Origin: a virus
Length of the DNA stretch: 64,000 bases
Virus record (IMG/VR): IMGVR_UViG_3300028025_006190
Location: 1 to 64,000 of that record
Direction: 5' to 3' (one strand)
The position numbers and the translations under genes are program-made. Of the stretch, positions 3 to 16,273 are shown in pieces; position 1 is the stretch's first letter; each line of letters starts with the position of its first letter. Under the pieces are notes generated by a model. That model searched no databases. It worked only from the letters and a program-made list of their open reading frames with translations, and had not been told where the DNA came from.

Positions 3-3000
3 TCTGGAGGAGGCGGAGGAACACCTCCACCGCCCCCACCACCCGGAGGAGGGGGAGGGGAGACCCCTCCCGACGGTGGCGGAGGCACGGGACCGACTGA
101 CTCCGGAACTGGCGAGGCTTCATACCGTACGGGTACCCCTGGGGACGTAAATTTTCCTGAAACCGTAATTGTCAAAGATGAGTTCACTGGTGAAGCAGAG
201 CTTTATGACTACATTGACGGTGTTGGTTACGTTGGTCGTGACTCGGGACTCGTGATTAGTGATGAAGATCTCCGTGCTGAGGCGATCTTTGGTAATGTCA
301 CCGACACAAAGAACAACGATGTCACCGTAGGAGACACAGACACAACGTCTACAGAAGATGAAGAGGCCAAAAAGAGAGCCGCAGCCGATGAAGCTAAGGC
401 CGAGGCTGAGAGACAGGCTGCAGAAGCCGAAAGAGCCGCTGAGTCAGAAAGACAGCTCGAAGAAGACCGCAAAAGGAGAGCAGAAAAACTCGAAGCGGAG
501 CGTCAGCGTAATGCCAAGCAGCTTGACATGCCTGTCGATGAGTCTAAGTACGACGTAGAGGGGTGGGAGCGACCAGACCACGATCCGAACCTTGCTCAGG
601 AGCTTGTAGATAATTCCCAAGCCGAGACAGAAAAAATTATAGAAAAGTACGGCATTACTTCACCCGAATATAGAGACCAAGACGACAGAGCAAAGGCACT
701 ACTTACTGCTGCAGGCACTATTAAGAAACTTGCGGAGGCTGTTAAGTTTGAATATCTAACCTCAAGAATCTATCGACTAGGCAACATCGAAGTTGTTTTT
801 TCGAGGGACTACACCCCCGAGGCAATCAAAAAAGTACTGGCGCAGGTAAAAGAACTTCAAGAAAAGTTCCCCATCAACAAGCCCGACGGATCAGTTACCC
901 GTATCTGGGTCCACGACGGCGATGCCAAAGATCTGGCAGGAGGTCTTACTACTGCAAATGGAGACATCATTCTCCCACTTAAGGCTAGTAACCTAAACAA
1001 CCCCGACTTCATCCCCGCACAAAGTCTCCCCTCACGGCAGAATCTGATGCCAGCATTTGTTGAGCTGGCGGACCGGGGCGAGTGGTTCAAGTACCCGCTC
1101 ACACACGAGTGGGGTCACGCTCTCGCTATGGTGCCTGGTGGTCCGTACATCTACAACAACGTTGTACAAGAATTTTATCAATTCCTCAAAGACAACCCAG
1201 ACTTTGCAGAAACTCTTGAGGGCTACGCCAAGAAAAATATTACTGAAGCAACAGCAGAAGTATTTGCTCAGTGGTACCTCCAAAATAATGGCGTCTCGGC
1301 CAGTATGGATATTCCACAAGAAGCCATTGACATCATTCTTAGCAATAAAAAGAAAGCACCCGAAGGCGCTGGAGACCTATCTACCGTTACGCTACCTGCT
1401 GGCTGGGAAATTGGCGATGAGAAAGATATAGACGTACATATCGGTGGCCTGAAGAATCTTATTAAGCTCCAGGAAGACAGGCTAGAAAACCTATCTGGTG
1501 CAGAGCCAGACGCTGTTGTCGCCATCAGTATGGATGTTGGAGAGAAGATTATCGAGCTTGAGGCAATCATCTCGACAATTGAGGACAATAAAGAGTACCT
1601 AAAACCAATAAGTGTCGTGTCATTCAGTGGCGGTCCGATCGCAAAAATAGCCCCAAGATATGGAAGATGGGAATCCAAAAAAGATGGTGTTTTGTTGCTT
1701 GTCGATTCTCGGATGTCAGTTGATCAAATCAACGAGTTCCTTCAAAATGTAGATAACTTACGTAGTAGATTTGCTTTGACTTTCATCAGACCAGAAGACT
1801 CAACCGTATTCATCACTCTCATAGATGCTAAATCACCTGCAAGTGTGGACGCAAACAAGCTCTCCCCAACAGAGGGGACAATCCCATCTATAGGAAACCC
1901 GCTTACTAGTAATCTAGTAATTTTTGCAGATGGTGCATCTACCCTTAGAGATCAACTACGCCTGTCTGCCAATGTTAGAGAAGAGAATCCCTCACATGGT
2001 GACTCTTTTGCTGCACTAAATGAGCAAGGTAAGTGGTATCTGCACGAACTTGTAACCACCTGGGCCCGGAACCTGCCAAACAATGGCAACAGAAGAACAA
2101 TCTCTTCTGACCTGATCAACTCATACATAGTACAAAACGATCTCCCATATGCAGACAAGATAAATAAGAGCATGTCTACTGCAAATGTTTTTGATGAAAT
2201 TTTTGCTGACGCATTCTTCTCTGGTGTGGTTCCCGAGTGGATGCCTAGGATCTTTAATGAAGCATCTATTGCTGCACTCACAGCAGATCACGAAACTTAT
2301 GTACAAAAATCTGTAAAAATATTGCTAAGACTTTCTAACGGTCGTACTGTCCCGAGCCCAACTTCATCCGTACTCAGTAGCAGAGCTAGAAGACTTGTTG
2401 GTGCACTCCCCGGATTTATAGATGTGAGCGAGATTATCCCACGATCCACCACATGGACTCTAGGTATTGATAGCAATGAAATCGAGAAACTCCAGAAGGC
2501 GGCAGTCGAAAGAGAACTGGAAAGATGGAAAAACTACCCAGGAAACTTTAATAGTGGTATTAACATCAATACCATTCGACGTTGGATGAATGAAGAACAT
2601 GAAAAGTTTCATAGAGAAGTAATAAAAACTAGAAACAGATATTCTAGCCCCGGCGGCTCCGTTGTCTCCTTCCCCCCAGAAACTAATCAGGCAGTCGTTG
2701 ATCGGATGCTTAATCTGATCTCGTTCTTGGAAGAAAAAATGCCTATCTCGACGGGCCAAAAAGTTGTATTTTTGAATAGAGAAAGTAAATCAGAGCTGGC
2801 CCACTCATTCTATGGCCCCACCATCGAGGCATATCAAGATGTACACATGTTTGATTCTCAATTTGTGCTCGGTAATACTCTGCCACTACTTGGAGAAACT
2901 GAAAAAACTCCCTTCCACCCGCCGTCTAACTTTGTCCTGCCACAGGACATAACAACAATAATCCATGAGTGGATACACGCAAAAGACACAGACATGCCGG

Positions 3001-6000
3001 GGTCAGCAGACTATGCCTACAGGCCACCAAGATCTAGAAGAGAAAGAGTACTTAGAGCGCAATCAAATAAGTTGCGCAAACTCCTTAATGATAATAGGGG
3101 GTGGGCGAGTAAGTACCTTCCCTCGCGATATTCAGAAAAAACATACATGGAGTTCCTCGCTGAGCTAGGTCAGCAAGTTTTTGCTGAAGACTTCTTTGGA
3201 GCACCTAGAATTAGTCGTCCGCAGGAGCTTACGGACATAATCCGTGAGATGTACTCTCCAGAGGCTCGTGCCGAGGTTGAGGCTGCTCAGGCGCAAGGCA
3301 ATTTGCCAGACCCCGACTCAGAGATGAACATGCCGGGACTTGACAGCACTGCAACTCACTACGTTGCCACAGACGGTAATTATGGGGACGCTAGGGATAT
3401 TGCAATAGTGGATGCGTCTAAGTTTACTAATGACGACTGGGAGACAGTAGAAGCAGCTGACCCAGAAGAGCGCCCCGGTGTGGCTAGCATGCTTGCTTAC
3501 ATGCTCGGCTCTACCGGTACTCCAACACACTACGTGTCTCGGGATGGGAGTTATGGAGACGCTCGCAATATTGTATTTGTTGATGCTTCCATGTTCACCG
3601 AAGGCGACTGGGAAACAATTAATGAAGTGGATCCCAACCTAAGAGGCGAAAGAGCCACACTGCTCGAACAGATGTACAACAATGGGGGCCTCCCATCACC
3701 CGACGACGAGATGAACATGCTCAACGTTGAAGATGAAGATAGTGCCGACACGAACATCTGGGAACCAGTCTGGGAAGAGGTCGGCAGTTCAGAGATCCCC
3801 ACACTTGACCGCACTAGAGGGCAGATTATAAAAGAGTACGCGTCTAAGGTTCTTGGCGAGTCTCTTGTTGAAAAGGGAATTACTCAGGAGCAGCTTGGTG
3901 AGTTCCTCTACCTCAAAGTTATGCCTACGGATGGACTAGATCTTGAGGATATCTACAGACCCCAGGAGGGTGACACAGTTGATGCTGATCTTTCTGCAGT
4001 TATTAAGGTAGATTCCGAAGGTAACTGGAAAATTGAAAAACTGAGTAGATTCCTAGATCGAAACGGTCTAGACACAGGATACGATTTCGGAGCTGTTCCT
4101 CGTGATTTTGTTGATTCCGTGATTGAGGAAAATGCAAAACCAAATGAGACACTGGCTCTCTCTGGAACACCAGACGGACTTCGAGCTCTCGCTATTGCAG
4201 CAGCATCCATTGAGCTAAAAGATTGGGCACAGATTCTTAGTGGATCTGGTCAGGCACTCAGAAAAGACATTCAGCGTGCTGTCATAGAAATGTTCCCGGG
4301 GACTCTCAATGACCCAGACCTAATTAGAGAGTTCAACAACTTTAATATGTCTGCAAAAGAGATTGACCCAGTGACGATGGCTCTTGCCGAGTCTATGTAT
4401 GACATGACCCAAGAGTTTTTCCGTAGCCGGGGCATCTCGAACGTTACTATTTATCGTGGTGCCGGGAACATCCCAGAAGATATTCTTGACAATCTTGATG
4501 ACGCTAATGGAGTTCTTGCCAACCAGCAGCTTGTCACATTCCCGATCTCTTCTTGGACCACGGATCAGGACATGGCCTGGGACTTTGCACAGAGCTCGAG
4601 CGACTCCGTTGTGATGAGACGTAACGTTCCCGTTTCTGAGATCTTTGCCATTCCACTTAACGGTGTTGGAACATACGGCGAGCAGGAGCTTGTCACACTA
4701 GGTGGCACAATCAACGCTGACATCCAGGATTCTTCTCTATTTAGTGAGAACAACTGGCCAGAAGATGTCCCGGTATCGCCAGATGCCGAGATGAATATGC
4801 CTAGCGTTGATGGCGAAGAGCCCTACACGATGTCCTCTAAGTCATTTGATCGGCTGCTCCCACCAGACAGCCTTAACGAAGATGATGATGTTAATCCATA
4901 TCTTATGGAGGTCCCTGAGGCAGAAGAACTTATTCGCACACTCAAAAGTAACCTAGAAGGAAAAACTTTTGGACGGGATGGTCTCACTGTTGGAGAAATA
5001 ACGGTAGAACCATTTGAGTCTGTTGACCGAGATGTTGATGAGCTGGTACAAGGTATTAGGTACTCTTTTGAGGTGCTACAGAACGGAGCACGTGTCGGCT
5101 ATGTTTCTGAGGAAATTTATAGATATGAAGCATTCCCCGAAAAAATATATGAATCATTTAGTGTATTCCTAGAGGCAAAAAGTACTGGATTCACCACCGA
5201 GTGGCGTAAAGCAGCAGATAAGCTACACCGCCAGCTTGGGGTAGATGTGTCTGAAATATATGCTGTGGATGATGGATCTTGGTATTGGGCAATGAACGGC
5301 TATGGGTGGGTCGGAAGCGAAGAAACTCCTAGTCAGCTAGTAACATCTACAAGCGTTATTGATGCTGTTGAACAAGAAATGGACCTAGCAGAAAAAGCTG
5401 GAAGACTCGAAGACTTTAGAGCATTAAAAGAAATTAATGATCAACTTCTTGAAATGAATGGGACTAAACCATTTAACAAGGGAGAATACGTAACTCCTAG
5501 AGATATTGCTTCTCTAGTGTCAGAGGATGGTTCTAGTCTCGGTAGAACTATTATGCTTAACACGCCCTGGAATGCCGTCCTTAATATCCAAGAGGATCTC
5601 CCAGATCCCGGTGCAGAAATGAACATGCCTGACGTTCAGGGTCAAAGCAGCGAGTCAGTTAGTAAATCAAATGCTCCCGAGCCCGCGAGTGATCGCCAGT
5701 CAAAGGATGTCGCTCCTAGAAATGATGGATCCTCAAAGAGCATCGACAAGATTGATGAAATCTACCCAGCCGATATCAAAGACCCGGCCATTCAGATGAT
5801 CTATAACGACGGTGGAGACCAGGTTTTTGGTGAAGAGTCGTTTAGACAGATCAATGAAGTATTTGGTAATCCGAGACACCCAGTAATTATCTATAAAGCT
5901 GTGTCGGACAATGTGAACTCTATTGTCAGAGGAAACTCAGTTACTCTATCTAAGTCCCTCGCTGAGCAACAAGCTAAAGATATGTTTTTTTCAGATTTAG

Positions 6001-7358
6001 ATGAAGAAGAACGGATGTACCCTTTTGGGACAAAAGTTATATCTCGACAGGTTGAAGCTAGAGATGTGTTCACAGATGGCAACTCAATCCTTAACTGGGG
6101 ATATGACCCGATTGACACGCTAGAGCTCCCCGATCAGGTGCCCGCTGAAACACCGGCTGCCGGTACAGTAGACAATTTCCAGGACGGAATCGAACGTATC
6201 TACGATCCTGCATCTGAGCTAGTCCTTGAGGGCGAGTCAGACGTCATGAATGACAGCGCAATTCTTAAGCAAAGTGTTGCTGATCGAATCAGAGACATCA
6301 TGCGTGAGAAAGGCATCACGTGGACTCAGGCACGTGAACTACTACTAAATATGGTACTTGCAGATAAATTAAATATGAGTCAAGGCTCATTTGACGACAG
6401 CTGGCCAGATTTCGAGGACTTCCTTATGGGTGTCTCCCCAGACTATGACGCACAGAATGCCCAATTTGATGATCTAAATGTAGTCACCGCCCAATGGGGA
6501 GAGCCGCAAGTTTGGTCCGTAGATGAGTACACTAGCTGGGCCAAGCGTGCATACAACCTAGATATAGACGAGCGGACTCTAGATGGTCTTAGAGATCTTA
6601 TAAAAAGAGTAGAAGCTGCCTTTAATAAACAAGAATCAGAAAATGATCAACGTATAGGAAGAACCACCACACCAAACTATCGAGGTGCCGTCTACGGAAC
6701 ACCAGAGGCGGAAGATGTTCTTTTCTCTCTGGCAACCTCTGGCCTACTATCTACCTGGGCCTACACCTCGGTAGATGGGGTGATTGCTCCGGCTATGCAA
6801 AGCATTGTTGCAGATATGTTTGGAGTCGAGAACAAAATAGAAGCAGACAATATTGACCGTGATTTTTATGATGAGTATATGGATTTTAAGAATGCAAATC
6901 TAACAACACTCACCGCAGCAATAGAAGCCATGTATGAGTCCACTCAAGAGTTCTTCCGTAGCCAAGGAATTACGCATGTACGGGCGCATCGAGGGATTCA
7001 ACTCTCCCTAGACTCAATGGAAAATGAAGATTTGACTGATTCGGATAAGAAAATACTTGAAGATATAAAACAAGCACAAGCTAATCCCGAGTCCTTTGAT
7101 TTCACACACTATCCGCTCTCGTCTTGGTCATTTGATCCAGACCAGGCAGTTAGATTTGCCAACATGGATCTGACTAAGTTTCTGAGAAGACGTGGTGTAG
7201 TCATGGTAACTATCGTCCCAATCGAAGACATTTTTTCTCTTCCCTATTTCGGCCTCGGGGCCCTAGATGAGTATGAACTTGTTCTTGTTGGAAACCAACT
7301 CAGGCTTGTCCAGATCGTAGATGTCACCCCAGACGAGTACAGAGACTACGAGAACTAA
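3..7358 (+). CDS. Giant polyvalent effector / minor head-associated protein, 5'-truncated by the window edge (zincin metallopeptidase x2-3, tandem repeat module, ADP-ribosyltransferase x2 plus one degenerate ART-like domain, GNAT-like domain)
   Basis: The frame of the 252..7358 ORF stays open to the left edge (SGGGGGTPPPPPPPGGGG...). HExxH motifs: THEWGH (~1101) and IHEWIH (~2961). ART R-S-E triads: TIYRG/SSWT/EQE (4446-4690) and AHRGI/SSWS/EYE (6984-7280). GNAT-like STGF...LGV...AVDDGSWYWAMNGY (5180-5305). It lies directly upstream of the head genes. Confidence 0.8.
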   Translation, partial: SGGGGGTPPPPPPPGGGGGETPPDGGGGTGPTDSGTGEASYRTGTPGDVNFPETVIVKDEFTGEAELYDYIDGVGYVGRDSGLVISDEDLRAEAIFGNVTDTKNNDVTVGDTDTTSTEDEEAKKRAAADEAKAEAERQAAEAERAAESERQLEEDRKRRAEKLEAERQRNAKQLDMPVDESKYDVEGWERPDHDPNLAQELVDNSQAETEKIIEKYGITSPEYRDQDDRAKALLTAAGTIKKLAEAVKFEYLTSRIYRLGNIEVVFSRDYTPEAIKKVLAQVKELQEKFPINKPDGSVTRIWVHDGDAKDLAGGLTTANGDIILPLKASNLNNPDFIPAQSLPSRQNLMPAFVELADRGEWFKYPLTHEWGHALAMVPGGPYIYNNVVQEFYQFLKDNPDFAETLEGYAKKNITEATAEVFAQWYLQNNGVSASMDIPQEAIDIILSNKKKAPEGAGDLSTVTLPAGWEIGDEKDIDVHIGGLKNLIKLQEDRLENLSGAEPDAVVAISMDVGEKIIELEAIISTIEDNKEYLKPISVVSFSGGPIAKIAPRYGRWESKKDGVLLLVDSRMSVDQINEFLQNVDNLRSRFALTFIRPEDSTVFITLIDAKSPASVDANKLSPTEGTIPSIGNPLTSNLVIFADGASTLRDQLRLSANVREENPSHGDSFAALNEQGKWYLHELVTTWARNLPNNGNRRTISSDLINSYIVQNDLPYADKINKSMSTANVFDEIFADAFFSGVVPEWMPRIFNEASIAALTADHETYVQKSVKILLRLSNGRTVPSPTSSVLSSRARRLVGALPGFIDVSEIIPRSTTWTLGIDSNEIEKLQKAAVERELERWKNYPGNFNSGININTIRRWMNEEHEKFHREVIKTRNRYSSPGGSVVSFPPETNQAVVDRMLNLISFLEEKMPISTGQKVVFLNRESKSELAHSFYGPTIEAYQDVHMFDSQFVLGNTLPLLGETEKTPFHPPSNFVLPQDITTIIHEWIHAKDTDMPGSADYAYRPPRSRRERVLRAQSNKLRKLLNDNRGWASKYLPSRYSEKTYMEFLAELGQQVFAEDFFGAPRISRPQELTDIIREMYSPEARAEVEAAQAQGNLPDPDSEMNMPGLDSTATHYVATDGNYGDARDIAIVDASKFTNDDWETVEAADPEERPGVASMLAYMLGSTGTPTHYVSRDGSYGDARNIVFVDASMFTEGDWETINEVDPNLRGERATLLEQMYNNGGLPSPDDEMNMLNVEDEDSADTNIWEPVWEEVGSSEIPTLDRTRGQIIKEYASKVLGESLVEKGITQEQLGEFLYLKVMPTDGLDLEDIYRPQEGDTVDADLSAVIKVDSEGNWKIEKLSRFLDRNGLDTGYDFGAVPRDFVDSVIEENAKPNETLALSGTPDGLRALAIAAASIELKDWAQILSGSGQALRKDIQRAVIEMFPGTLNDPDLIREFNNFNMSAKEIDPVTMALAESMYDMTQEFFRSRGISNVTIYRGAGNIPEDILDNLDDANGVLANQQLVTFPISSWTTDQDMAWDFAQSSSDSVVMRRNVPVSEIFAIPLNGVGTYGEQELVTLGGTINADIQDSSLFSENNWPEDVPVSPDAEMNMPSVDGEEPYTMSSKSFDRLLPPDSLNEDDDVNPYLMEVPEAEELIRTLKSNLEGKTFGRDGLTVGEITVEPFESVDRDVDELVQGIRYSFEVLQNGARVGYVSEEIYRYEAFPEKIYESFSVFLEAKSTGFTTEWRKAADKLHRQLGVDVSEIYAVDDGSWYWAMNGYGWVGSEETPSQLVTSTSVIDAVEQEMDLAEKAGRLEDFRALKEINDQLLEMNGTKPFNKGEYVTPRDIASLVSEDGSSLGRTIMLNTPWNAVLNIQEDLPDPGAEMNMPDVQGQSSESVSKSNAPEPASDRQSKDVAPRNDGSSKSIDKIDEIYPADIKDPAIQMIYNDGGDQVFGEESFRQINEVFGNPRHPVIIYKAVSDNVNSIVRGNSVTLSKSLAEQQAKDMFFSDLDEEERMYPFGTKVISRQVEARDVFTDGNSILNWGYDPIDTLELPDQVPAETPAAGTVDNFQDGIERIYDPASELVLEGESDVMNDSAILKQSVADRIRDIMREKGITWTQARELLLNMVLADKLNMSQGSFDDSWPDFEDFLMGVSPDYDAQNAQFDDLNVVTAQWGEPQVWSVDEYTSWAKRAYNLDIDERTLDGLRDLIKRVEAAFNKQESENDQRIGRTTTPNYRGAVYGTPEAEDVLFSLATSGLLSTWAYTSVDGVIAPAMQSIVADMFGVENKIEADNIDRDFYDEYMDFKNANLTTLTAAIEAMYESTQEFFRSQGITHVRAHRGIQLSLDSMENEDLTDSDKKILEDIKQAQANPESFDFTHYPLSSWSFDPDQAVRFANMDLTKFLRRRGVVMVTIVPIEDIFSLPYFGLGALDEYELVLVGNQLRLVQIVDVTPDEYRDYEN
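3355..3675 (+). repeat. Two tandem ~55-aa repeats (THYVxxDGxYGDARxIxxVDASxFTxxDWET...) inside the giant ORF
   Basis: THYVATDGNYGDARDIAIVDASKFTNDDWETVE versus THYVSRDGSYGDARNIVFVDASMFTEGDWETIN. Confidence 0.9.
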
Positions 7359-8062: not shown

Positions 8063-11000
8063 ATGGCTAATTTTGTTGGCAGATCTGGATCACTTCTGCT
8101 TTTCGTCCTAGACGACAGAGGTGTAGTTGTCGATTCTGATGTAAACCTTATTGTTGCATCCGGCAAGGCTGAGCCTCTGCAAAGCTCTCGCAGCTGGGCC
8201 CCCGGAGAGTTCTCCGAAGAATCCCATGACCTAGCAGACTCGGGTCTTTCTTTTGTTGACCTATCTATTACAGCAGACGGTAGTCGGATGTACACCATCC
8301 CCAAAGCCGCCCAAGCTGAAGCTAAGAAAGCTCTTGAGTGGAGAAAAGAAGAAGGCCGTGGCGGTACGTCTGTCGGTATCAACACTGCTCGTACGCTTGC
8401 TAAGGGTGGACAGATCGGTATCGAGAAGGTCCGCCACATTTCAAAGTATTTTGCTCGTCACGAAGTTGACAAAAAGGGCAAGGGCTGGAAACCAGCTCAA
8501 GACGGGTTCCCATCCAACGGCCGTATCGCGTGGGCACTCTGGGGTGGTGACGCTGCATGGCGTTGGGCCCGTGCCATCGTTGAGCGTGAAAACAAAAAAT
8601 CCATTACAGCAGACGGATACGGCATTGCCGAGGGTAGATATGACTATGGCTACCCCACAGCTCCATACGAGCTTGATGACTTTAAGGTCGCCCAAGAGGC
8701 CGAAGACATGGTCATACCAGAGTTCCTTGCTCGAGTTCGCCTCGACGGATCTGGTTTTGATCGACTCTACAAAATTGATCTCGACGGCAATGTCTATGTC
8801 TGGGATGACGGTGTTTGGGATAATCTCGGCTACAGCGGAAAAGATATCTGGGTCTATGACAATGAGCTCGACGACCCCGCAGATGCCAGAGTAGAGAAGT
8901 CGCACATTGTTATTGACCCGTCCTCTGCTATTACGATTGCAGCTCGACTCCTCAATAACCCGTATAGATTTGTTACACTGGAACAAATTGACGCAGCGGA
9001 AGCAGATCTTGCTAACGAAGCAATCCCACACATTGACTGGGAGATCGTTGAGCGCGGAATGCTCGCTGCCGGTGAAATAGATCCGGGGGACGGCATCTAC
9101 ACCGAAGAGGAGCGTTCCGCGAACGCCTCGAAACAGGTCCGTGACGCCACGGGCAAGTTTACAACAACCGGTTCTAGAGTTATGATCGGCGGCGACGCAA
9201 GAAGAGGTCTCGGTCAGATCACTAAAATAAATCCCGGACAAAATACCGTTGAGGTCAAACTAGATAACGGCAAGACCGTCACTGTTCCCGGTAACGCTGT
9301 AGAGGACGCTCCTGATGAGCAGTTTGACTCAACGGCTGGCGGACCAGCTGTGTCGTCTAGAATTGATACGAGCGGAATTCTTGGTGAGCCTAGAACACCA
9401 ATTAATAGCGTTAAAGCTCAGCTACCTGGGACTCTCCCAGCTATGACTGACGGTGACCTAAAAGAGATGCTCTCCAATTGGCCAGCATGGGTAAACAAGC
9501 AACGATCTGAGTTCAAGCCGGCATCTTCGAGAGGGCCTGTCCCGGTTCAAGGCAAGAACAGCCTTGATATCGGTAACTGGGGTCGTTCTTTCGAGAAAGA
9601 GACTGGTAAGCAGCTCATCAAGAATGCCTACGACCACCCGCTACTGAACAGATGGCTGAATAGTCAAAATACTGCCGGCGAGTACCCAAACAGAGCTTGG
9701 TACAACCCAATTACGGCAGCTGTTAAGGGAGAGCCCGAAAAGGCTGTATCGCCAGAGACAACAGATGTTCAACCTATTTACATGGCCGTTGTTGACAAGG
9801 ATGACCCTAGAGCAGTTCTCGAGCTCGTAGCTATTGTTCCTGCTAGCGACAAGTCTAGCTCCGCGATGACGTACAAGCGAAATGAAGGTAAGTGGGTCCG
9901 CGACACAAAGACCCTTCAGGATCTTAAGTCGGCTACACCACCACCAGTTGTTCCTCTTGACACAGACACACTCCAGGATGTCCTCAAGCAGGTTGACCAG
10001 ACTCAAGGTGTAACAGCTTCTCTCATTATGTCTGTCCTCTTTGGGCCAACGCTTCTCGCTGCTGGCGGCCTAGACCGCAACCGTGGGAACGCAGAGAAGC
10101 TTAGAAGATATTGGACAGTTGGTAAGGGTGCTGCAAAGATTCGCTGGGGCACACCTGGAGACTGGAAGCGTTGCGTACGTCACCTATCTAAGTACATGGG
10201 TGTTCGCTCGAAGGGCTACTGCCAGCTACGCCACAAGGAAGTTACTGGTGTCTACACGGGCAGCAAACTTAACCCCGGTAACGAGAACTCGATCAACGAA
10301 GCTGGCTCTGGTATTCCCGAAGAAGTACTGTACGGGATGCCCGAGAGCATGATTCAATATGAAATCCCCAAGATCGATCTTGAGATGACTCTGGATGAGA
10401 TTATCCGAGAAGAAGATGATCTATATGACGACAGCTGGGACCCCGAGGAAGAAATTGTAGAACAGCTCAGGGTTCTTGGATCATGCGATGACAGGCAGTA
10501 CGCACTTCTTGCAGCTGGTGGCCTAGATCGTAACCAAGGCAAGGCCGAGGAGCTTCGTCGGTATTGGACTGTCGGCAAGGGTGGAGCAAAAATCCGCTGG
10601 GGAACTCCAGGGGATTGGACTCGTTGTGTTCGGAACCTGTCTAAGTACCTAGGAACACGCTCGAAGGGGTATTGCGCCCTCCGACACAAAGAGGTTAATG
10701 GAGTCTGGCCAGGAGAGCAGAACACGAACGAGTATGTCATCATGGCATCCGGCACACGAGTCTCCGCTGATCAAGTTCTTCGCAGTGAAGAGGAGTTCAT
10801 TGCGCTCTCCGAACTGTCTGTCCGATCTGACGTACTAAAGGCTCGAGTAGCTGGTGCATACGGCTTTGTAAAGAGGGCCGGACAAGATGTAAATATCCCA
10901 ACAAACTCCTTCTTCTTCCACAACAGAGCTGAAGTCCCTAGTGGGATGGAAAACACCCTGAAGAGGGAAGAGCCGTTTGATGAGGGTGAGGTTTACATTG

Positions 11001-11197
11001 AGGACCTTATTCCATCGCAGAAAACAGTAAACATGCGCAGAGTATCGTCCGTCTCCGGAGCAGATAAGCCAGTCATGGTTCTTATTACTGAAAACGGCCC
11101 GGTACTGATTGATGGTCACCACAGGACGGTATCTCGGATGATGTCCGGATCCAACACTATCCCCGCAAAGATATACAAGATGAGTGAGACCTACTGA
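8063..11197 (+). CDS. Multidomain head-associated protein (conserved phage head domain, SH3/KOW-like segment, duplicated Cys/His domain, C-terminal ParB/Srx-like domain)
   Basis: GRIAWALWGGDA domain seen in phage head morphogenesis proteins; duplicated GGLDRNxGxAExLRRYW...KIRWGTPGDWxRC...KGYCxLRH; C-terminal DLIPSQ...LIDGHHR ParB-like motif; coupled to the protease gene (TGATG). Confidence 0.75.
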   Translation: MANFVGRSGSLLLFVLDDRGVVVDSDVNLIVASGKAEPLQSSRSWAPGEFSEESHDLADSGLSFVDLSITADGSRMYTIPKAAQAEAKKALEWRKEEGRGGTSVGINTARTLAKGGQIGIEKVRHISKYFARHEVDKKGKGWKPAQDGFPSNGRIAWALWGGDAAWRWARAIVERENKKSITADGYGIAEGRYDYGYPTAPYELDDFKVAQEAEDMVIPEFLARVRLDGSGFDRLYKIDLDGNVYVWDDGVWDNLGYSGKDIWVYDNELDDPADARVEKSHIVIDPSSAITIAARLLNNPYRFVTLEQIDAAEADLANEAIPHIDWEIVERGMLAAGEIDPGDGIYTEEERSANASKQVRDATGKFTTTGSRVMIGGDARRGLGQITKINPGQNTVEVKLDNGKTVTVPGNAVEDAPDEQFDSTAGGPAVSSRIDTSGILGEPRTPINSVKAQLPGTLPAMTDGDLKEMLSNWPAWVNKQRSEFKPASSRGPVPVQGKNSLDIGNWGRSFEKETGKQLIKNAYDHPLLNRWLNSQNTAGEYPNRAWYNPITAAVKGEPEKAVSPETTDVQPIYMAVVDKDDPRAVLELVAIVPASDKSSSAMTYKRNEGKWVRDTKTLQDLKSATPPPVVPLDTDTLQDVLKQVDQTQGVTASLIMSVLFGPTLLAAGGLDRNRGNAEKLRRYWTVGKGAAKIRWGTPGDWKRCVRHLSKYMGVRSKGYCQLRHKEVTGVYTGSKLNPGNENSINEAGSGIPEEVLYGMPESMIQYEIPKIDLEMTLDEIIREEDDLYDDSWDPEEEIVEQLRVLGSCDDRQYALLAAGGLDRNQGKAEELRRYWTVGKGGAKIRWGTPGDWTRCVRNLSKYLGTRSKGYCALRHKEVNGVWPGEQNTNEYVIMASGTRVSADQVLRSEEEFIALSELSVRSDVLKARVAGAYGFVKRAGQDVNIPTNSFFFHNRAEVPSGMENTLKREEPFDEGEVYIEDLIPSQKTVNMRRVSSVSGADKPVMVLITENGPVLIDGHHRTVSRMMSGSNTIPAKIYKMSETY
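10052..10715 (+). repeat. Two copies of a ~70-aa domain (LLAAGGLDRN...RHKEVxGVxxG)
   Basis: Near-identical protein copies start at ~10052 and ~10506, separated by an acidic spacer. Confidence 0.9.
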
Positions 11198-14196
11198 TGA
11201 CAACAAACTACAACATCTCCCAAAAAGTGCTTGACGCACTAATTGCTTCAGGAAGTATCTCTGGGTCAAAGTTTGTCATTCCCCTTGTTATCCCTGAGGG
11301 AGTTGAGTCTGGTGACGGACGCATGTTCAAGAAGGGCTCGATCTCTATGCGGGATCTTCCTCTTCCACTTTTGTGGCAGGTCAAGACCGGAGCTGGCCAC
11401 GACGGCTCTGTTGTTGTGGGTCGGATCGATCATATGGAAAGAACTGACGAAGGCATTGGTAATGCCTACGGCTACTTTGATTCCGGAGAATATGGTCAAG
11501 AAGCCGAAAGACTAGTCAGAGAAGGATTCATCCGGGGAGTTTCTGCGGACATGGATCAGTTCGAGGCGCAAGAAACAGAAGACGAAATTACTGCCGCTGA
11601 GCTTGCAAAAAACGAAAAACCCAAAAAAATTGAAAAAGAAAAACTTACCATAAATAAGGCCCGCGTAATGGCGGTTACAATAGTACCTAAGCCCGCATTT
11701 CAAGAATGCAGTATTTCGCTTGCAAACGATGACGGGGACGTTTCTCAGGAGGAAACTATGATTCCAGATGGAATTTACATCGAAGATGTAGACCCAAATG
11801 AAGCCGAAGCAGTTGTTGCTAGTGGCATGATTGCTGGTGCAATCCCCACAGAGCCACCTGCTGATTGGTTCAACAACCCCAAGCTCAGTGAGCCGACCCC
11901 TCTTACGGTTGACAACCAGGGCCGTGTGTTTGGTCACATCGCTGCTTGGCACGTTGATCACATTGGCATGGCATTCGGAACCCGCCCACCTCGTAGCCGT
12001 AGCAACTACGGATACTTCCACACAGGCGTCTGCCGTACCGCCGAGGGTGCAGACATCCCTGTTGGCCAGCTAACTCTCGCCGGTGGTCACGCTGATATTA
12101 CAGCATCTGCCGCTGAGGCCGTCAAGCACTACGATGACACAGCATCCGCTGTAGCCGATGTTCACGCTGGTGAAGATCAGTATGGTATCTGGGTTGCCGG
12201 TGCACTTCGACCTGGTGTATCTCCTGAGCAGGTACGCGCACTTCGTGCCTCGGCTCCTTCCGGTGACTGGCGTCCAATTAAGGGTGGCCTCGAGCTTGTT
12301 GCTGTTTGTCAGGTAAACGTTCCTGGGTTCCCGATCGCACGCGCACGTGTTGCTTCTGGTCAGGTTATGGCTCTGGTTGCAGCTGGTGCCCACGCACTTG
12401 CCAAGCTTCGGACTAGCCCACTAGACGAACTCTCTGCCCGCATCCAGAAGCTGGAGACAGACAAGACTCAGGCTCTAGCTACTCAGCAGGATGAGCTCCG
12501 TGCTCGCTTTGCATCGATGACAGCAGAGTTCTCAGCCAAGCCAGAGCCAGTAGTTGCTGGTGGATCTCCCGACATGGCAGCAGCCTTAGAGCAGTTGCTT
12601 GCAGATAGCGTTGCGTACTCGTTCAAGGCTCAGGGCTACCACTGGAACGTCAAGGGTCAGGACTTCGCTCAGTACCACGAACTATTCGGTGAGGTCTACT
12701 CAGACGTTTACGGATCCATCGACTCAATTGCCGAGAGCATGCTCAAGCTAGGGTACGACGCTCCATTTAATATTGGACAGTGGGCCTCGCAAAACAGCAT
12801 CGGTAACGGTGGGGTAACCTCCACATCTTGCCAGGCCATGGCTTATGACCTCTACATAGGTAGCGAGCAGATGGTTGCACTTCTCAAGGGTGTGTTCGAC
12901 ATTGCTAACGCAATGAACGAGCAAGGGGTTGCTAACTTCCTCGCCGAGAGAATTGAATCTCAGCAGAGATGGTCATGGCAGCTTGGTGCTTCTTCTGCAG
13001 AGTACAAGCAAGAAAAAGAAGAGTACATGGAGATGGAAGCCGCCGAGTACGAGCCTGGTGGCTACGAGTATGGCGAAGATATGGATGCCTACGAGTATGC
13101 ATTCTCTAACCTAGAGAAGAATGGTGTGTACGAGGCATCAATCATTGCCAGTGCTTCGGACCCCCAGACCCGTGTAGATGCATTCTTTGCTGTCGCTGAG
13201 TTCGCTAAATTCACTGACGATGAGCGTAAAGAATTGGCAAAGAAAGGTTGGGCTATGCCAGATGGTGCATACCCGATCCGTAACGAGTCTGATCTAAAGA
13301 ATGCAATCAAAGCTTACGGCCGTGCATCGCTCAAGGAGCAGGTCGCCACTAAGAAGCACATCATCAAGCGTGCGCGGGCTCTTGGCCTTGTTGCCATGCT
13401 CCCCGATGTGTGGCACATCAAGAATGCATCCACTTCGGAGTTCAGCATCGACAACATGCGTGAAGCTGCAGCCAAGCGGTCTAAAGACCTTAGTGATCCT
13501 GTCTTCCAGCTCCGTGCTCGCGTTGCTTCTGCCAAGTCAGATCTAGAAGATGCCCTAGAAGTGGCTCGAAAGTCTGGAAATCTAGAAGCTGTTCGTCAGG
13601 CTGAGAAGGACATCAGGGAGATCAACAAAGATCAAACTGAGATACCAACTACGCCAGGTGTAGTTGAGCGTGATGAATTTGGTCGTATCAAGTTCACCGC
13701 AAAGACTCAGCCGAGAGACGCTCGTGGTCGATTCCGCGACGTTCTTGCACGCCTCAAGTCTAATCTCGGTACCTCTGGTAGCCAGAATGTTGTTGCCAAG
13801 ATTAAGGCCGCTGAGAACCTAGACAACACCGGAAACTATGCCGGAGCCGTTGAGGCAGTTGCTGACCTCATTAATACAATTGACCGCCTAGATACTGGTG
13901 CTCTAAACAAGGAATCCCTTGAGAACATCACACGTACCACTACCGATCTCGGTAAGGTCATTGCAAATCTTCCCCTCCCATTCTCTAACCAAGCACAGAA
14001 GGTTCGTTACAGTGACCTACCTCCTGCGCTCCAAGACCTGATGAAAAACATGATCACTAAGGTCGAGGAAAAGATTGGACAGGAAGACGCGGATATTGCA
14101 ACGCAAGAGCTCCGTGGATTTATGTCAGGGTCTGACGTTTATAGTCAGGGCGAGGTTTCGTCCCAGATGAATAAATTGCTCAGATTGCTTACATAA
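11197..14196 (+). CDS. Capsid maturation (prohead) protease polyprotein with internal Dps/ferritin-like and DUF6582-like domains
   Basis: N-terminal EGVESGDGR...LPLPLLWQ...GHDGSVVVGRI...RGVSAD...PAF is typical of actinophage HK97-type proteases. Dps signature HWNVKGxxFxxxHELF...D..AE at 12574-12996. ERKELAKKGWAMPDGAYPIRNESDLKNAI domain at ~13210-13410. Directly upstream of the capsid gene. Confidence 0.8.
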   Translation: MTTNYNISQKVLDALIASGSISGSKFVIPLVIPEGVESGDGRMFKKGSISMRDLPLPLLWQVKTGAGHDGSVVVGRIDHMERTDEGIGNAYGYFDSGEYGQEAERLVREGFIRGVSADMDQFEAQETEDEITAAELAKNEKPKKIEKEKLTINKARVMAVTIVPKPAFQECSISLANDDGDVSQEETMIPDGIYIEDVDPNEAEAVVASGMIAGAIPTEPPADWFNNPKLSEPTPLTVDNQGRVFGHIAAWHVDHIGMAFGTRPPRSRSNYGYFHTGVCRTAEGADIPVGQLTLAGGHADITASAAEAVKHYDDTASAVADVHAGEDQYGIWVAGALRPGVSPEQVRALRASAPSGDWRPIKGGLELVAVCQVNVPGFPIARARVASGQVMALVAAGAHALAKLRTSPLDELSARIQKLETDKTQALATQQDELRARFASMTAEFSAKPEPVVAGGSPDMAAALEQLLADSVAYSFKAQGYHWNVKGQDFAQYHELFGEVYSDVYGSIDSIAESMLKLGYDAPFNIGQWASQNSIGNGGVTSTSCQAMAYDLYIGSEQMVALLKGVFDIANAMNEQGVANFLAERIESQQRWSWQLGASSAEYKQEKEEYMEMEAAEYEPGGYEYGEDMDAYEYAFSNLEKNGVYEASIIASASDPQTRVDAFFAVAEFAKFTDDERKELAKKGWAMPDGAYPIRNESDLKNAIKAYGRASLKEQVATKKHIIKRARALGLVAMLPDVWHIKNASTSEFSIDNMREAAAKRSKDLSDPVFQLRARVASAKSDLEDALEVARKSGNLEAVRQAEKDIREINKDQTEIPTTPGVVERDEFGRIKFTAKTQPRDARGRFRDVLARLKSNLGTSGSQNVVAKIKAAENLDNTGNYAGAVEAVADLINTIDRLDTGALNKESLENITRTTTDLGKVIANLPLPFSNQAQKVRYSDLPPALQDLMKNMITKVEEKIGQEDADIATQELRGFMSGSDVYSQGEVSSQMNKLLRLLT

Positions 14197-14326
14197 AAAT
14201 AATGTAATATTAGTTATTGGGTGTAGTGCCTCCACATAAAAGTGTGCGGAAGTCCCTATATCTCAGACTAACCAAAGATGTGCGGAAAGGTTCCGTGCAT
14301 ACTTACTGGCCCTAAGGAGAGGTACA

Positions 14327-16273
14327 GTGGACCACATCAAATCACAGCTGGACATGCTAGCTGAGCTCGACGACACACAGGTCGAAGATCTTCAGAACAG
14401 TATTGTCACTGAGTTTGAGTCGATGGAACAAAGCGACCCCACTCCAGAGTCAGTAGATGCCATGACAACCCTAGCGGACATGCTTGAAACAGTCCGTGGC
14501 GAGGTGTCACGTCGTGAAGTTGAGGCGCAGGAGCTTGCTGCTCGTGCGTCCGAGGCTGCCGACCGTGTACACAACGCAGAGGGAACAGAACAGGAGGAGG
14601 CTCCTATGGAGGAGACCCCAATGGAGGAAGAGACAGAAGCTCCGATGACCGAAGACATGCCTGAAGAGGACATGATGGAGGAAGACGAGAAGAAGGTTGT
14701 TCCTGCGGAAGCATCGACTGACGTGGAGGAGGCAGCCGAGTTTGCATCGGACTCCGAATCTGCAGAAGTAGAGAGCGTTGAACCAGTGACCGAAACAACA
14801 ACTGAGGTTGTTGTTGAAGACGCTGTAGAGCTTTCTACCGAAACAACAGAGGCTGAGGCTGAGGTAGTAGAGGAGACAATTGTCGCCGCTATCGAGGCCG
14901 AGGTTGACACACCAGCTGAAGCAGAAGCTTCAGTTGTAGAAGAAACAACTATTGAGCCTGAATCGGCTCAGGAAGAGGCACCCGTGACCGCCGCAGCAGA
15001 AGAGGCCTTCGAGGCCCCAGCTGACCGTCGTTTCGTAGCACAGGTTGTCGAGACACCCGTGGCAATCACTGCGGGTGCTGACATTCCAGGCTACACAGCT
15101 GGCAGCACAATTGAATCAATGAGCGACGTTGCAGTTGCGATGGAGAAGCGTCTCCACTCGCTACGCCGCGTCAACGGTGGAGATGGTGAGCAGCACATTG
15201 TTGCTTCTATCGCTACCCAGTACCCTTCGGATCGTATCCTTGGTACTGACCCAGAAGAGAACCGTCAGAAGATTGAGAACGTTGTTGGAGCAGAGGCGCT
15301 TGTCGCTTCGGGTGGTTACGCCACTCCGCTTCAGGTTCGTTACGATGTCTTTGGTCTCGGTACAGCAGCACGTCCCGTTCGTGACGCGCTTCCTCGTTTC
15401 CAGGCAGACCGTGGTGGTATCCGCTACGTAACTCCTCCAGTACTTAGCTCATACGCTAACGCTGTTGGTGTCTGGACAAACGCGACCGATACAACACCTG
15501 AAGCAAACACCAAGACAAGCCTTACTGTTACGGCAGCCCAGGAGCAGACAGCATACACAGACGCTGTTACTCTGCAGATGCAGTTCGGTAACTTGTTTAG
15601 CCGTGCGTACCCAGAGCTTCTGGCCCGCCACAACGAGCTTGGTCTAATCCAGCACGCTCGTGAGGCAGAGCAGAACATCCTGAGCCGCATCGGTACTGCT
15701 TCGACGGCTGTTACAACCACAAGCCTCATCGGCTTTGGTCGTGACTTCCTCGTTCAGATCAAGCGGGCCGCGTCGGCTTACCGTACGCGTCACCGTATCG
15801 ACCCAAACACACAGCTTCGTGCGATCATCCCTTCGTGGGTGTACGACGCTATGTCGGCTGACTTGACCCTGGCTATGCCTGGTGACTCAACAATCAGCGT
15901 GGGTGCTTCGGAGATCAACGGCTACCTCGCTTCGTCGAACGTATCGCTCGTTGCTTCGCTCGATGGTACGCAGTTCGCTTCGCAGTCGGGTTCGGGTGCT
16001 GCTCTCCAGGAGTTCCCAGACTCGTTCGTTTGGTACCTCTTCGCTGAGGGTTCGTTCATCTTCCTCGATGGTGGAACACTTGACCTCGGAATCATCCGTG
16101 ACTCCGGTCTTGTCGGCACCAACGACTACAAGATGTTCGTTGAGACCTTCGAGGGCGTTGCCTTCGTCGGTACCGAGTCGCTTGCTATTACGTCGACCAT
16201 CTCGGTCAACGGTGTAGCTGCAGCTCTCCGCGACACAACTGGTGGCGCTACTGCTGCCGCCGTCGAGTACTAA
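14327..16273 (+). CDS. Major capsid (hexamer) protein with N-terminal acidic scaffold-like region
   Basis: Strong AAGGAGAGG RBS and strongly biased codon use. A Glu/Ala-rich N-terminal part is followed by LVASGG...RGGIRY...GGTLDLGIIRDSxLxxTNDYxxFxETFE, as in actinophage major capsid proteins. Confidence 0.85.
   Translation: MDHIKSQLDMLAELDDTQVEDLQNSIVTEFESMEQSDPTPESVDAMTTLADMLETVRGEVSRREVEAQELAARASEAADRVHNAEGTEQEEAPMEETPMEEETEAPMTEDMPEEDMMEEDEKKVVPAEASTDVEEAAEFASDSESAEVESVEPVTETTTEVVVEDAVELSTETTEAEAEVVEETIVAAIEAEVDTPAEAEASVVEETTIEPESAQEEAPVTAAAEEAFEAPADRRFVAQVVETPVAITAGADIPGYTAGSTIESMSDVAVAMEKRLHSLRRVNGGDGEQHIVASIATQYPSDRILGTDPEENRQKIENVVGAEALVASGGYATPLQVRYDVFGLGTAARPVRDALPRFQADRGGIRYVTPPVLSSYANAVGVWTNATDTTPEANTKTSLTVTAAQEQTAYTDAVTLQMQFGNLFSRAYPELLARHNELGLIQHAREAEQNILSRIGTASTAVTTTSLIGFGRDFLVQIKRAASAYRTRHRIDPNTQLRAIIPSWVYDAMSADLTLAMPGDSTISVGASEINGYLASSNVSLVASLDGTQFASQSGSGAALQEFPDSFVWYLFAEGSFIFLDGGTLDLGIIRDSGLVGTNDYKMFVETFEGVAFVGTESLAITSTISVNGVAAALRDTTGGATAAAVEY

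Follow-up and report, generated by a model that had tools for sequence, protein, structure and literature searches.

The C-terminal 2451 residues of a giant phage protein, encoded at the start of the 64,000-base stretch of viral DNA that we refer to as the window (positions 1 to 64,000 of IMG/VR record IMGVR_UViG_3300028025_006190), carry four copies of a short peptide that stands between successive modules of the chain. To judge from alignments, the peptide is held at module borders in the orthologues even where modules have been swapped, inserted or deleted. We tentatively read it as a lineage-private processing site in a polyvalent cargo protein, cut by zincin peptidases that would be part of the same chain, and put the chance of this at somewhat under even. 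For cleavage at the junctions of any kind the balance seems to tip slightly in favour.

The four copies have the form P-x-P-(D/G)-x-E-M-N-M, all are in the frame of an open reading frame (ORF) at 3-7358 that is open at its 5' end, and each translates exactly as the first-pass annotation of this DNA had claimed. They are as follows.

Positions 3303 to 3335, plus strand: junction motif 1, LPDPDSEMNMP, separating zincin 3 from the tandem-repeat module.
Positions 3690 to 3722, plus strand: junction motif 2, LPSPDDEMNML, separating the tandem-repeat module from the first ADP-ribosyltransferase (ART 1).
Positions 4770 to 4802, plus strand: junction motif 3, PVSPDAEMNMP, separating ART 1 from the module that follows.
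Positions 5598 to 5630, plus strand: junction motif 4, LPDPGAEMNMP, followed by a linker rich in Ser and Gln and by the C-terminal module.

EMNM is observed four times, against 0.006 expected from composition, and a loose regular expression for the motif gives four matches against 0.53 in shuffled sequences (P ~0.0015). No EMNM beyond these four was found in the six frames of the window, and a position-specific scoring matrix made from 9 motif instances matched only the same four places in the whole 76,977-base contig, with a background of 0.06 matches per 10,000 shuffled residues. Synonymous codons for P, D, E and N differ among the copies, and in the orthologues the peptide is retained although its DNA differs; because of this we agree with the first-pass annotation that selection acts on the peptide.

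An exhaustive HMMER search gave two orthologues, P0005 (5290 aa) and P0007 (4824 aa), both metagenomic, and many distant giant proteins that have only ART or other single modules in common with the window protein. Homology blocks to P0005 break at aa 1090/1103, 1249/1208 and 1603/1590, one block ending at aa 1090 and the next beginning at 1103, on the two sides of motif 1. P0005 has the ART and repeat modules in swapped order, with the repeat after ART 1, and its borders carry PVDPNDQLNMM, PVNPNDQLNMM or PVDPNDLLNIS. Motif 2 aligns to the first and the last of these, and motif 3 to the second and to IPTDPVFLNAI of P0007. The latter protein is without the repeat module and has a single motif, PPKDATTLNAP, at the merged junction; a second (PTDPVFLNAI) follows the ART, and a third (DLDFLNAPDFDE) stands at the start of an insertion of 900 aa that is its own and matches nothing in P0005.

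From these instances the junction consensus, of about 16 residues, is P-x-P-[DNG]-x-x-[ML]-N-[MIA]-x-x-hydrophobic-[DEQ], and the conserved core is [LM]-N-[MIA]-x-x-hydrophobic-[DEQ]. The Asn and the Met/Leu before it are invariant in 10/10 instances. The Glu, which had been counted as part of the motif, is not conserved, the orthologues having Gln, Leu, Thr or Phe in its place, and has to be dropped from the definition. A loose regular expression for the core matched only motif copies in P0001 and P0007, and one extra place in P0005. Loss of the motif from domain borders in homologues had been named beforehand as an outcome that would speak against the proposal; we find it kept there in variant form, if imperfectly.

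The modules between and around the copies are listed here with the protein as a whole.

Positions 3 to 7358, plus strand: giant protein, putative polyvalent cargo protein, C-terminal 2451 aa (from the ORF list; 5' end truncated by the contig start).
Positions 774 to 1382, plus strand: zincin-like domain 1, with HEWGH at aa 368-372 (nucleotides 1104-1118).
Positions 2634 to 3272, plus strand: zincin-like domain 3, with HEWIHAKD at aa 988-995 (nucleotides 2964-2987), directly upstream of motif 1.
Positions 3336 to 3689, plus strand: tandem-repeat module, two copies of ~56 aa, each beta-beta-beta-alpha-alpha, read directly from the sequence.
Positions 3807 to 4769, plus strand: ART 1 module, a predicted R-S-ExE-type ADP-ribosyltransferase (catalytic residues, DRAT, model and Foldseek).
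Positions 4803 to 5597, plus strand: module of unconfirmed fold, labelled GNAT in the first-pass annotation, homologous to modules in other giant proteins.
Positions 5631 to 7355, plus strand: C-terminal module, comprising a linker, a phrog_2579 domain (aa 1895-2039) and ART 2 (~aa 2194-2451).

With regard to the earlier domain labels, the two ARTs are borne out and the zincins stand on their HExxH sequences and weak profiles, while the GNAT label is weak and the part that had been called ART-like matches instead the ParB C-terminal domain of PHROG.

The HEWxH domains are likely to be zincins. HEWGH and the downstream Glu helix (E415/E419) of zincin 1 are invariant in three orthologues, as are H988, E989, H992, D995, E1050 and E1054 of zincin 3, and both domains have the HExxH helix and the third Glu/Asp ligand on a later helix that characterise a metallopeptidase. 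They are paralogues of each other (hhalign 93%), and zincin 1 matches the MPTase-PolyVal domains of related phages over a region that spans the HExxH and the Glu helices (hhalign 60%). Zincin 3 has atlas neighbours with ATLF or Peptidase_M90 and a weak Aspzincin_M35 match at the HExxH; its predicted order is a helix, three strands, the HExxH helix and the Glu helix, in a model from a three-sequence alignment with a predicted local distance difference test score (pLDDT) below 50. The chain would thus appear to include two active-looking zincin peptidases.

Assignment of ART 1 to the R-S-E clade of ADP-ribosyltransferases is a well supported prediction. R1485, S1517, E1560 and E1562 are invariant in 29 homologues, and the Pfam model DRAT matches 14 of the 29. 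The AlphaFold model has a pLDDT of 78 and a predicted template modelling score (pTM) of 0.79, with a confident core at aa 1269-1589, and almost all of its best Foldseek matches are to ADP-ribosyltransferase toxins (ExoS, Tre1-type, Certhrax, VIP2 and C3), these matches being weak at E 0.01-0.3. No solved structure was matched by sequence with the ART-family profile. ART 2 is a paralogue of ART 1 in which HRG, LSSWS and DEYELV are visible. In the segment after motif 4 there is a match to phrog_2579 ("ParB C-terminal domain") at E 1.7e-13, and the repeat module, modelled with a pLDDT of ~78, has a weak DUF5784 match. For the module at 4803-5597 the Pfam search gave no match, and the GNAT label has behind it only a weak atlas cluster in which 20% of the members have Acetyltransf_1. 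In sum the protein combines two HExxH zincin-like domains, two R-S-ExE ARTs, a repeat domain and the PHROG "ParB C-terminal" domain, that is, several disparate activities on one phage polypeptide, which is what marks the polyvalent class; none of the polyvalent-protein models of Pfam matched it in the Pfam search.

The models and the ART homologues bear on the borders as well. In the ART 1 model motif 2 has a pLDDT of 36-39 and motif 3, just past the last helix, is below 50, and in the repeat-module model motifs 1 and 2 are both in low-confidence coil. Most stand-alone ART homologues stop 16-40 residues past the ExE; motif 3 sits 35 residues past that of ART 1, and the terminal ART of the protein stops 26 residues past its own. 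With the breaks in homology to P0005, this agrees with the earlier claim that the copies stand at domain borders.

Related phages were examined by collecting 20 related IMG/VR loci through a head protein of 1044 aa that is described below. Their giant ORFs are mostly non-homologous to the giant protein of the window, yet many are punctuated in a similar way, with the following peptides.

GF[AEDS]Q-x-[PA]-G: loci L011, L012-L014 and L022, with 23 copies in one ORF of 4801 aa.
G[FL]DQ[AD][AP]: loci L008, L009, L010, L016 and L023, with 2 to 9 per ORF.
PSQNRE(G): loci L006 and L007, with seven copies.

Copies are 100-450 aa apart, and all synonymous codons are used across the 23 copies of one relative's motif. 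None of these cargo motifs was found in any of the six frames of 12.5 kb of downstream head and tail DNA. Four giant ORFs are without a junction motif, those of Actinomycetia phage DSL-LC01, L004, L019 and L021.

The giant protein of DSL-LC01 (L003:3957-13826, 3289 aa) lacks any [LMI]-N-[MILA] tripeptide, HExxH or junction motif. It shares no homology with that of the window, though this phage is the closest cultured relative, and because of this we think that the cargo gene has been replaced wholesale between related phages.

HExxH domains are present in every motif-bearing giant protein, in the same ORF or in an adjoining one. They are HEWxH in the window protein and its two orthologues, two MPTase-PolyVal domains (PF18818, E 1e-40) together with ArdC-N in the GFAQ/GLDQ group, and HEIGH and HEVWH in the PSQNRE group. 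Three of the four motif-less giants have no HExxH in the sequence seen and the other has a single HELQH, where chance would give ~0.08 per 3000 aa as estimated from typical residue frequencies. The association between motif and zincin, over three independent motif classes each with its own type of HExxH zincin, is suggestive. The prohead protease domain is 62-68% identical to that of the window across phages with EMNM, GFAQ, GLDQ, PSQNRE or no motif, and because it stays so whatever the cargo motif, the reader of the cargo motif should be encoded in the variable giant gene. The first-pass annotation had offered one of the protein's own zincin domains as a candidate reader, and gains indirect support from this change of motif beside a steady protease and from the constant presence of HExxH in the motif-bearing giants.

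Two natural gene splits fall at junction motifs. In L012 an ORF ends ...DNVGFAP-stop inside a junction that reads GFAQ in the otherwise collinear L013, and the chain of L023 runs unbroken through a junction at which L008 has two separate ORFs, a motif copy lying on each side of the split. Because the splits fall at these places, continuity of the chain at junctions is dispensable in the relatives, as would be expected if the junctions are normally cut.

In eight relatives the giant ORF terminates shortly beyond a C_CCA_AAA heptamer, with a stop codon and then a CCCCC-N4-5-GGGGG hairpin behind it (L009:7470-7510, L008:6989, L010:3785, L012:4568, L013:4441, L014:4441, L016:7467 and L023:7464). 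The -1 frame runs into an ORF with ArdC-N and two MPTase-PolyVal zincins, and a junction motif stands ~15-20 codons beyond the slippery site, which is ~25-35 codons from the beginning of the stop-to-stop frame. An in-frame fusion of both parts is seen in G004 (L011). The arrangement resembles a programmed -1 frameshift, by which the dose of the zincin part would be set as in Gag-Pro-Pol.

More distant ART-bearing giants (P0006, P0010, P0035, P0015, P0041 and P0034) have motifs of their own, of 10-15 residues, every 150-500 aa. The motifs and counts are KHGTGDQSPHGNWAR (19 copies), KGDVxGHxFHGNQW/Y (8), RLSSG (10), KYSPxQPRD..GRW (6) and KHLPGRHDQKDHG (4). Junction codes seem, on these distant giants, to be general in this class of proteins. 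Another related phage (L038:1197-15884, G001) has an ORF of 4896 aa with about eight GNAT-like repeats (RRKGIATA..LEFAR, PIYHS), five copies of (V/T)EEDLP and one HEIGH.

The head proteins of the window have a different motif, hydrophobic-hydrophobic-A-[SAG]-[GA], and the genes concerned are these.

Positions 8063 to 16273, plus strand: head module with this motif, consisting of the 1044-aa protein and the products of 11197-14196 and 14327-16273 (PHROG and Pfam).
Positions 11197 to 14196, plus strand: prohead protease-Dps-scaffold protein, 999 aa (PHROG and Pfam).
Positions 14327 to 16273, plus strand: major capsid protein (PHROG and Pfam).

There are 16 copies of the head motif in 2,691 aa of head proteins as against 2 in the 2,451-aa giant protein, and in the related loci head ORFs have 5.6 per 1000 aa where the giant ORFs upstream have 0.7. 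Conservation of the motif extends over ~20 related phages, with ITAGADIPGY invariant at the start of the conserved capsid region, and its sites are probably those of the prohead protease. The earlier distinction between cargo and head motifs is thus upheld, and the two-code pattern extends to ~20 related phages. A Dps-like module (aa 455-648 of the 999-aa protein) has VVAGG on one side and IIASA on the other, and the DSL-LC01 homologue is without it; LIASG at the start of the protease protein aligns to an internal VLTAGG of DSL-LC01. On this comparison the head motif appears to act as a module junction too.

Most relatives have the 1044-aa and protease proteins fused in one ORF of 1500-1750 aa. 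The two are separate in the window and in DSL-LC01, split at different points that each lie beside a head-code motif. The 1044-aa protein has two copies of a Cys/His-containing domain (phrog_6439) and a C-terminal ParB/sulfiredoxin-like DGHHR segment (window 10900-11197).

With regard to the setting of the giant gene, the start of the window is base 1 of the 76,977-base IMG/VR record, which is estimated to be 45% complete. The alignment to P0005 begins at aa 2641 of that protein, and comparison with the orthologues suggests that ~2,600 aa are missing from the N-terminal side; upstream in the orthologues there is a UvrD-type helicase. The window takes in the structural and replication region of an actinobacterial-type siphovirus. 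Its major capsid protein is 68% identical to that of DSL-LC01, and also matches those of large Microbacterium and Arthrobacter phages. The gene order is the giant gene, two small ORFs, the 1044-aa protein, the 999-aa protein, capsid, tail tube and tape measure. The 999-aa protein has a prohead protease domain at aa 15-454 (PHROG head maturation protease, with a weak Peptidase_S78 match), a Dps-like ferritin domain and a C-terminal part. DSL-LC01 has a matching order of portal, giant gene, protease genes and capsid. From its position the giant protein may be packaged in the capsid and delivered by the virion.

Other searches for the giant protein added little. DNA and protein searches of cultured phages gave no relative except for one ART domain, and scans of IMG/VR and JGI metagenomes with the giant protein and two alignments as queries gave none. 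Word-indexed protein searches gave none at near length and only P0007 among longer proteins, and the same kind of search with zincin 3 alone gave no match.

Packaging, cutting, the enzyme that cuts and the bond that is cut are all matters that we infer. On the reading that we prefer, the protein's own zincins would cut at the junctions, probably just before the Met/Leu of the core and either after packaging or after ejection, and the cuts would release separate anti-host enzymes. Zincins usually prefer a bulky hydrophobic residue at P1', and Met/Leu in the window, or Phe/Leu in the GFAQ/GLDQ group, followed by a small polar residue, would suit their hydrophobic S1' pocket.

Several points weigh against self-processing by the zincins. 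Placement of the giant protein in the capsid is presumed, from gene position alone. The zincin fold is without a Pfam match, and has the model pLDDT below 50 and the hhalign value of 60% to MPTase-PolyVal that were given above. The association of motif with zincin comes from only three independent classes, and one motif-less ORF has an HExxH. Conservation is seen in two orthologues and 10 instances; motif 4 is the least conserved and is degenerate in P0005 (STGTDISVP), and two modules inserted in P0005 are without a motif on one side. Finally, the zincins of polyvalent proteins may be effectors that act on host proteins, a role that is also allowed for in the part of the 2017 survey of these proteins (PMC5512222) considered here.

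The strongest of the rival explanations, which we nevertheless consider unlikely, is that the peptide is a linker that is never cut, a docking or hinge element that stays in the chain and binds elsewhere on the giant protein or to a partner in packaging or ejection, or keeps the junction extended for threading through the tail. It would account for the length of the conserved stretch, ~16 residues with the core inside it, which exceeds that of many protease sites, and N4 vRNAP and ArdC are described in that part of the survey (PMC5512222) as polyvalent proteins delivered uncut. However, the motif class changes while the head proteins remain 50-68% identical, which makes a partner on the conserved capsid, portal or protease unlikely; the gene splits in relatives indicate that the chain need not be continuous; and one targeting signal would do, yet copy number follows the number of junctions.

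Cleavage by an enzyme outside the giant protein, namely the prohead protease (S78/HK97-like, 11197-14196) or a host protease, is in our view distinctly improbable. Trimming of head cargo by the prohead protease is established in T4 and in phiKZ-like phages, where Alt and the internal proteins of the one and the inner-body proteins of the other provide a precedent. The giant gene is in the head module near the protease gene, and the hydrophobic-N-A of the P0007 variant resembles the hydrophobic-x-A of the head motif. In cargo processed by such a protease one looks for the same motif in capsid or scaffold and in cargo, and for a specificity that tracks the protease, and neither is found here. 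The capsid, scaffold and protease proteins do not contain the cargo motif and have a conserved motif of their own; that motif is nearly absent from the giant ORFs at the densities given above; and the near-constant protease domain is found in phages with unrelated cargo motifs.

The swaps, insertions and deletions that fall exactly at junctions, and the stretches of up to 13 identical bases common to the four copies, would also be expected of a recombination joint, in which short identical DNA at the borders is kept for exchange of modules and the peptide is not read at all. We give this little credence, as the codon differences between copies, the different DNA of the orthologues and the use of every synonymous codon in the 23-copy relative all count against it, but recombination at the junctions can coexist with cleavage as a side benefit.

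Internal translation starts, a ribosome-skipping peptide and a sliding-clamp-binding motif are very improbable. Each window copy does have two Met codons, D-x-E-x-N-x-P has a loose likeness to the picornaviral 2A peptide, as QLNMM has to clamp-binding peptides of the QLxLF type; but Met is replaced by Leu, Ile or Ala in orthologues and no Shine-Dalgarno sequence was found ahead of the motif ATGs, the Pro after the core is not conserved and 2A skipping is not known to work on bacterial ribosomes, and the invariant residue is an Asn, which is not a conserved position of clamp motifs.

Three more candidates were tried and rejected: Glu-specific cleavage of the T4/phiKZ type, as the Glu is not kept in the orthologues; self-cleavage of the Asn-Pro type, as the Asn is not followed by Pro; and a repeat at the DNA level, as the copies differ in synonymous codons.

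Going beyond self-processing in the window protein, it is possible, though we hold it rather doubtful, that the clade as a whole runs two proteolytic codes, a conserved head code read by the prohead protease and a private, fast-changing cargo code read by the in-chain zincins, with the zincin part placed after a -1 frameshift in some relatives. If this is so then one gene delivers a set of separately acting anti-host enzymes, and the cargo code is free to drift, reader and sites being inherited together.

Among known systems the nearest are the polyvalent proteins as defined by Iyer, Burroughs, Anand, de Souza and Aravind in 2017 (PMC5512222), who, in the passages considered here, also predicted processing by zincin-like metallopeptidases. 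As described there, they are like the window protein in being giant, multi-domain and encoded beside head genes, with zincins, ADP-ribosyltransferases, a helicase and domains of unknown function, and phages related to that of the window carry the Pfam domains MPTase-PolyVal and ArdC-N. They differ in that those passages name no recognition or cleavage site, whereas the motif in the window is defined, private to the cargo and variable between lineages, and in that the domains of the window protein reach no Pfam polyvalent model. A 2026 preprint reports a polyvalent protein detected by proteomics in phi24B virions, with no cuts mapped. Our literature searches found no paper that names such junction motifs, and searches for the motif strings of other polyvalent proteins gave nothing relevant.

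T4 Alt and the internal proteins (L/I-x-E), and the ejection proteins of phiKZ and SPN3US (S/A/G-x-E), are similar in that enzymes packed in the head, an ADP-ribosyltransferase among them, have their product delimited by a short recurring site, packaging being only presumed for the window protein. In those phages one code serves capsid and cargo and is read by the prohead protease, whereas in the window the two codes exclude each other, the Glu is not a conserved residue and changes in the cargo code do not follow the protease. Retroviral Gag-Pro-Pol and the picornaviral 3C system likewise have one chain with a short site at each junction and a protease domain inside, putative in our case, and the resemblance to Gag-Pro-Pol extends to the zincin part after a -1 frameshift-like signal in eight related phages. 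Unlike these there is no homology, the proteases of the window are putative zincins, the cleavage is presumed and the host is a bacterium.

The delimiters of polymorphic toxins, such as VENN of CdiA and the core-end motif of Rhs proteins, are found a single time, ahead of one C-terminal toxin, and have partner immunity genes. By analogy they too may be seen as short conserved peptides at which variable toxin-type modules join and exchange, but the window has several copies per chain, between what appear to be unrelated modules.

What this case contributes is that a conserved head code stands clearly apart from a private cargo code, and that the latter is linked to zincins in the same chain. 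Polyvalent proteins are widespread in phages and plasmids, and as far as the passages considered here go the 2017 survey only predicted their processing by zincins; a defined junction peptide makes that prediction simple to test. If it is confirmed, the number of effectors delivered could be read from sequence by way of the junction motifs, and these motifs would explain the free exchange of modules between related phages.

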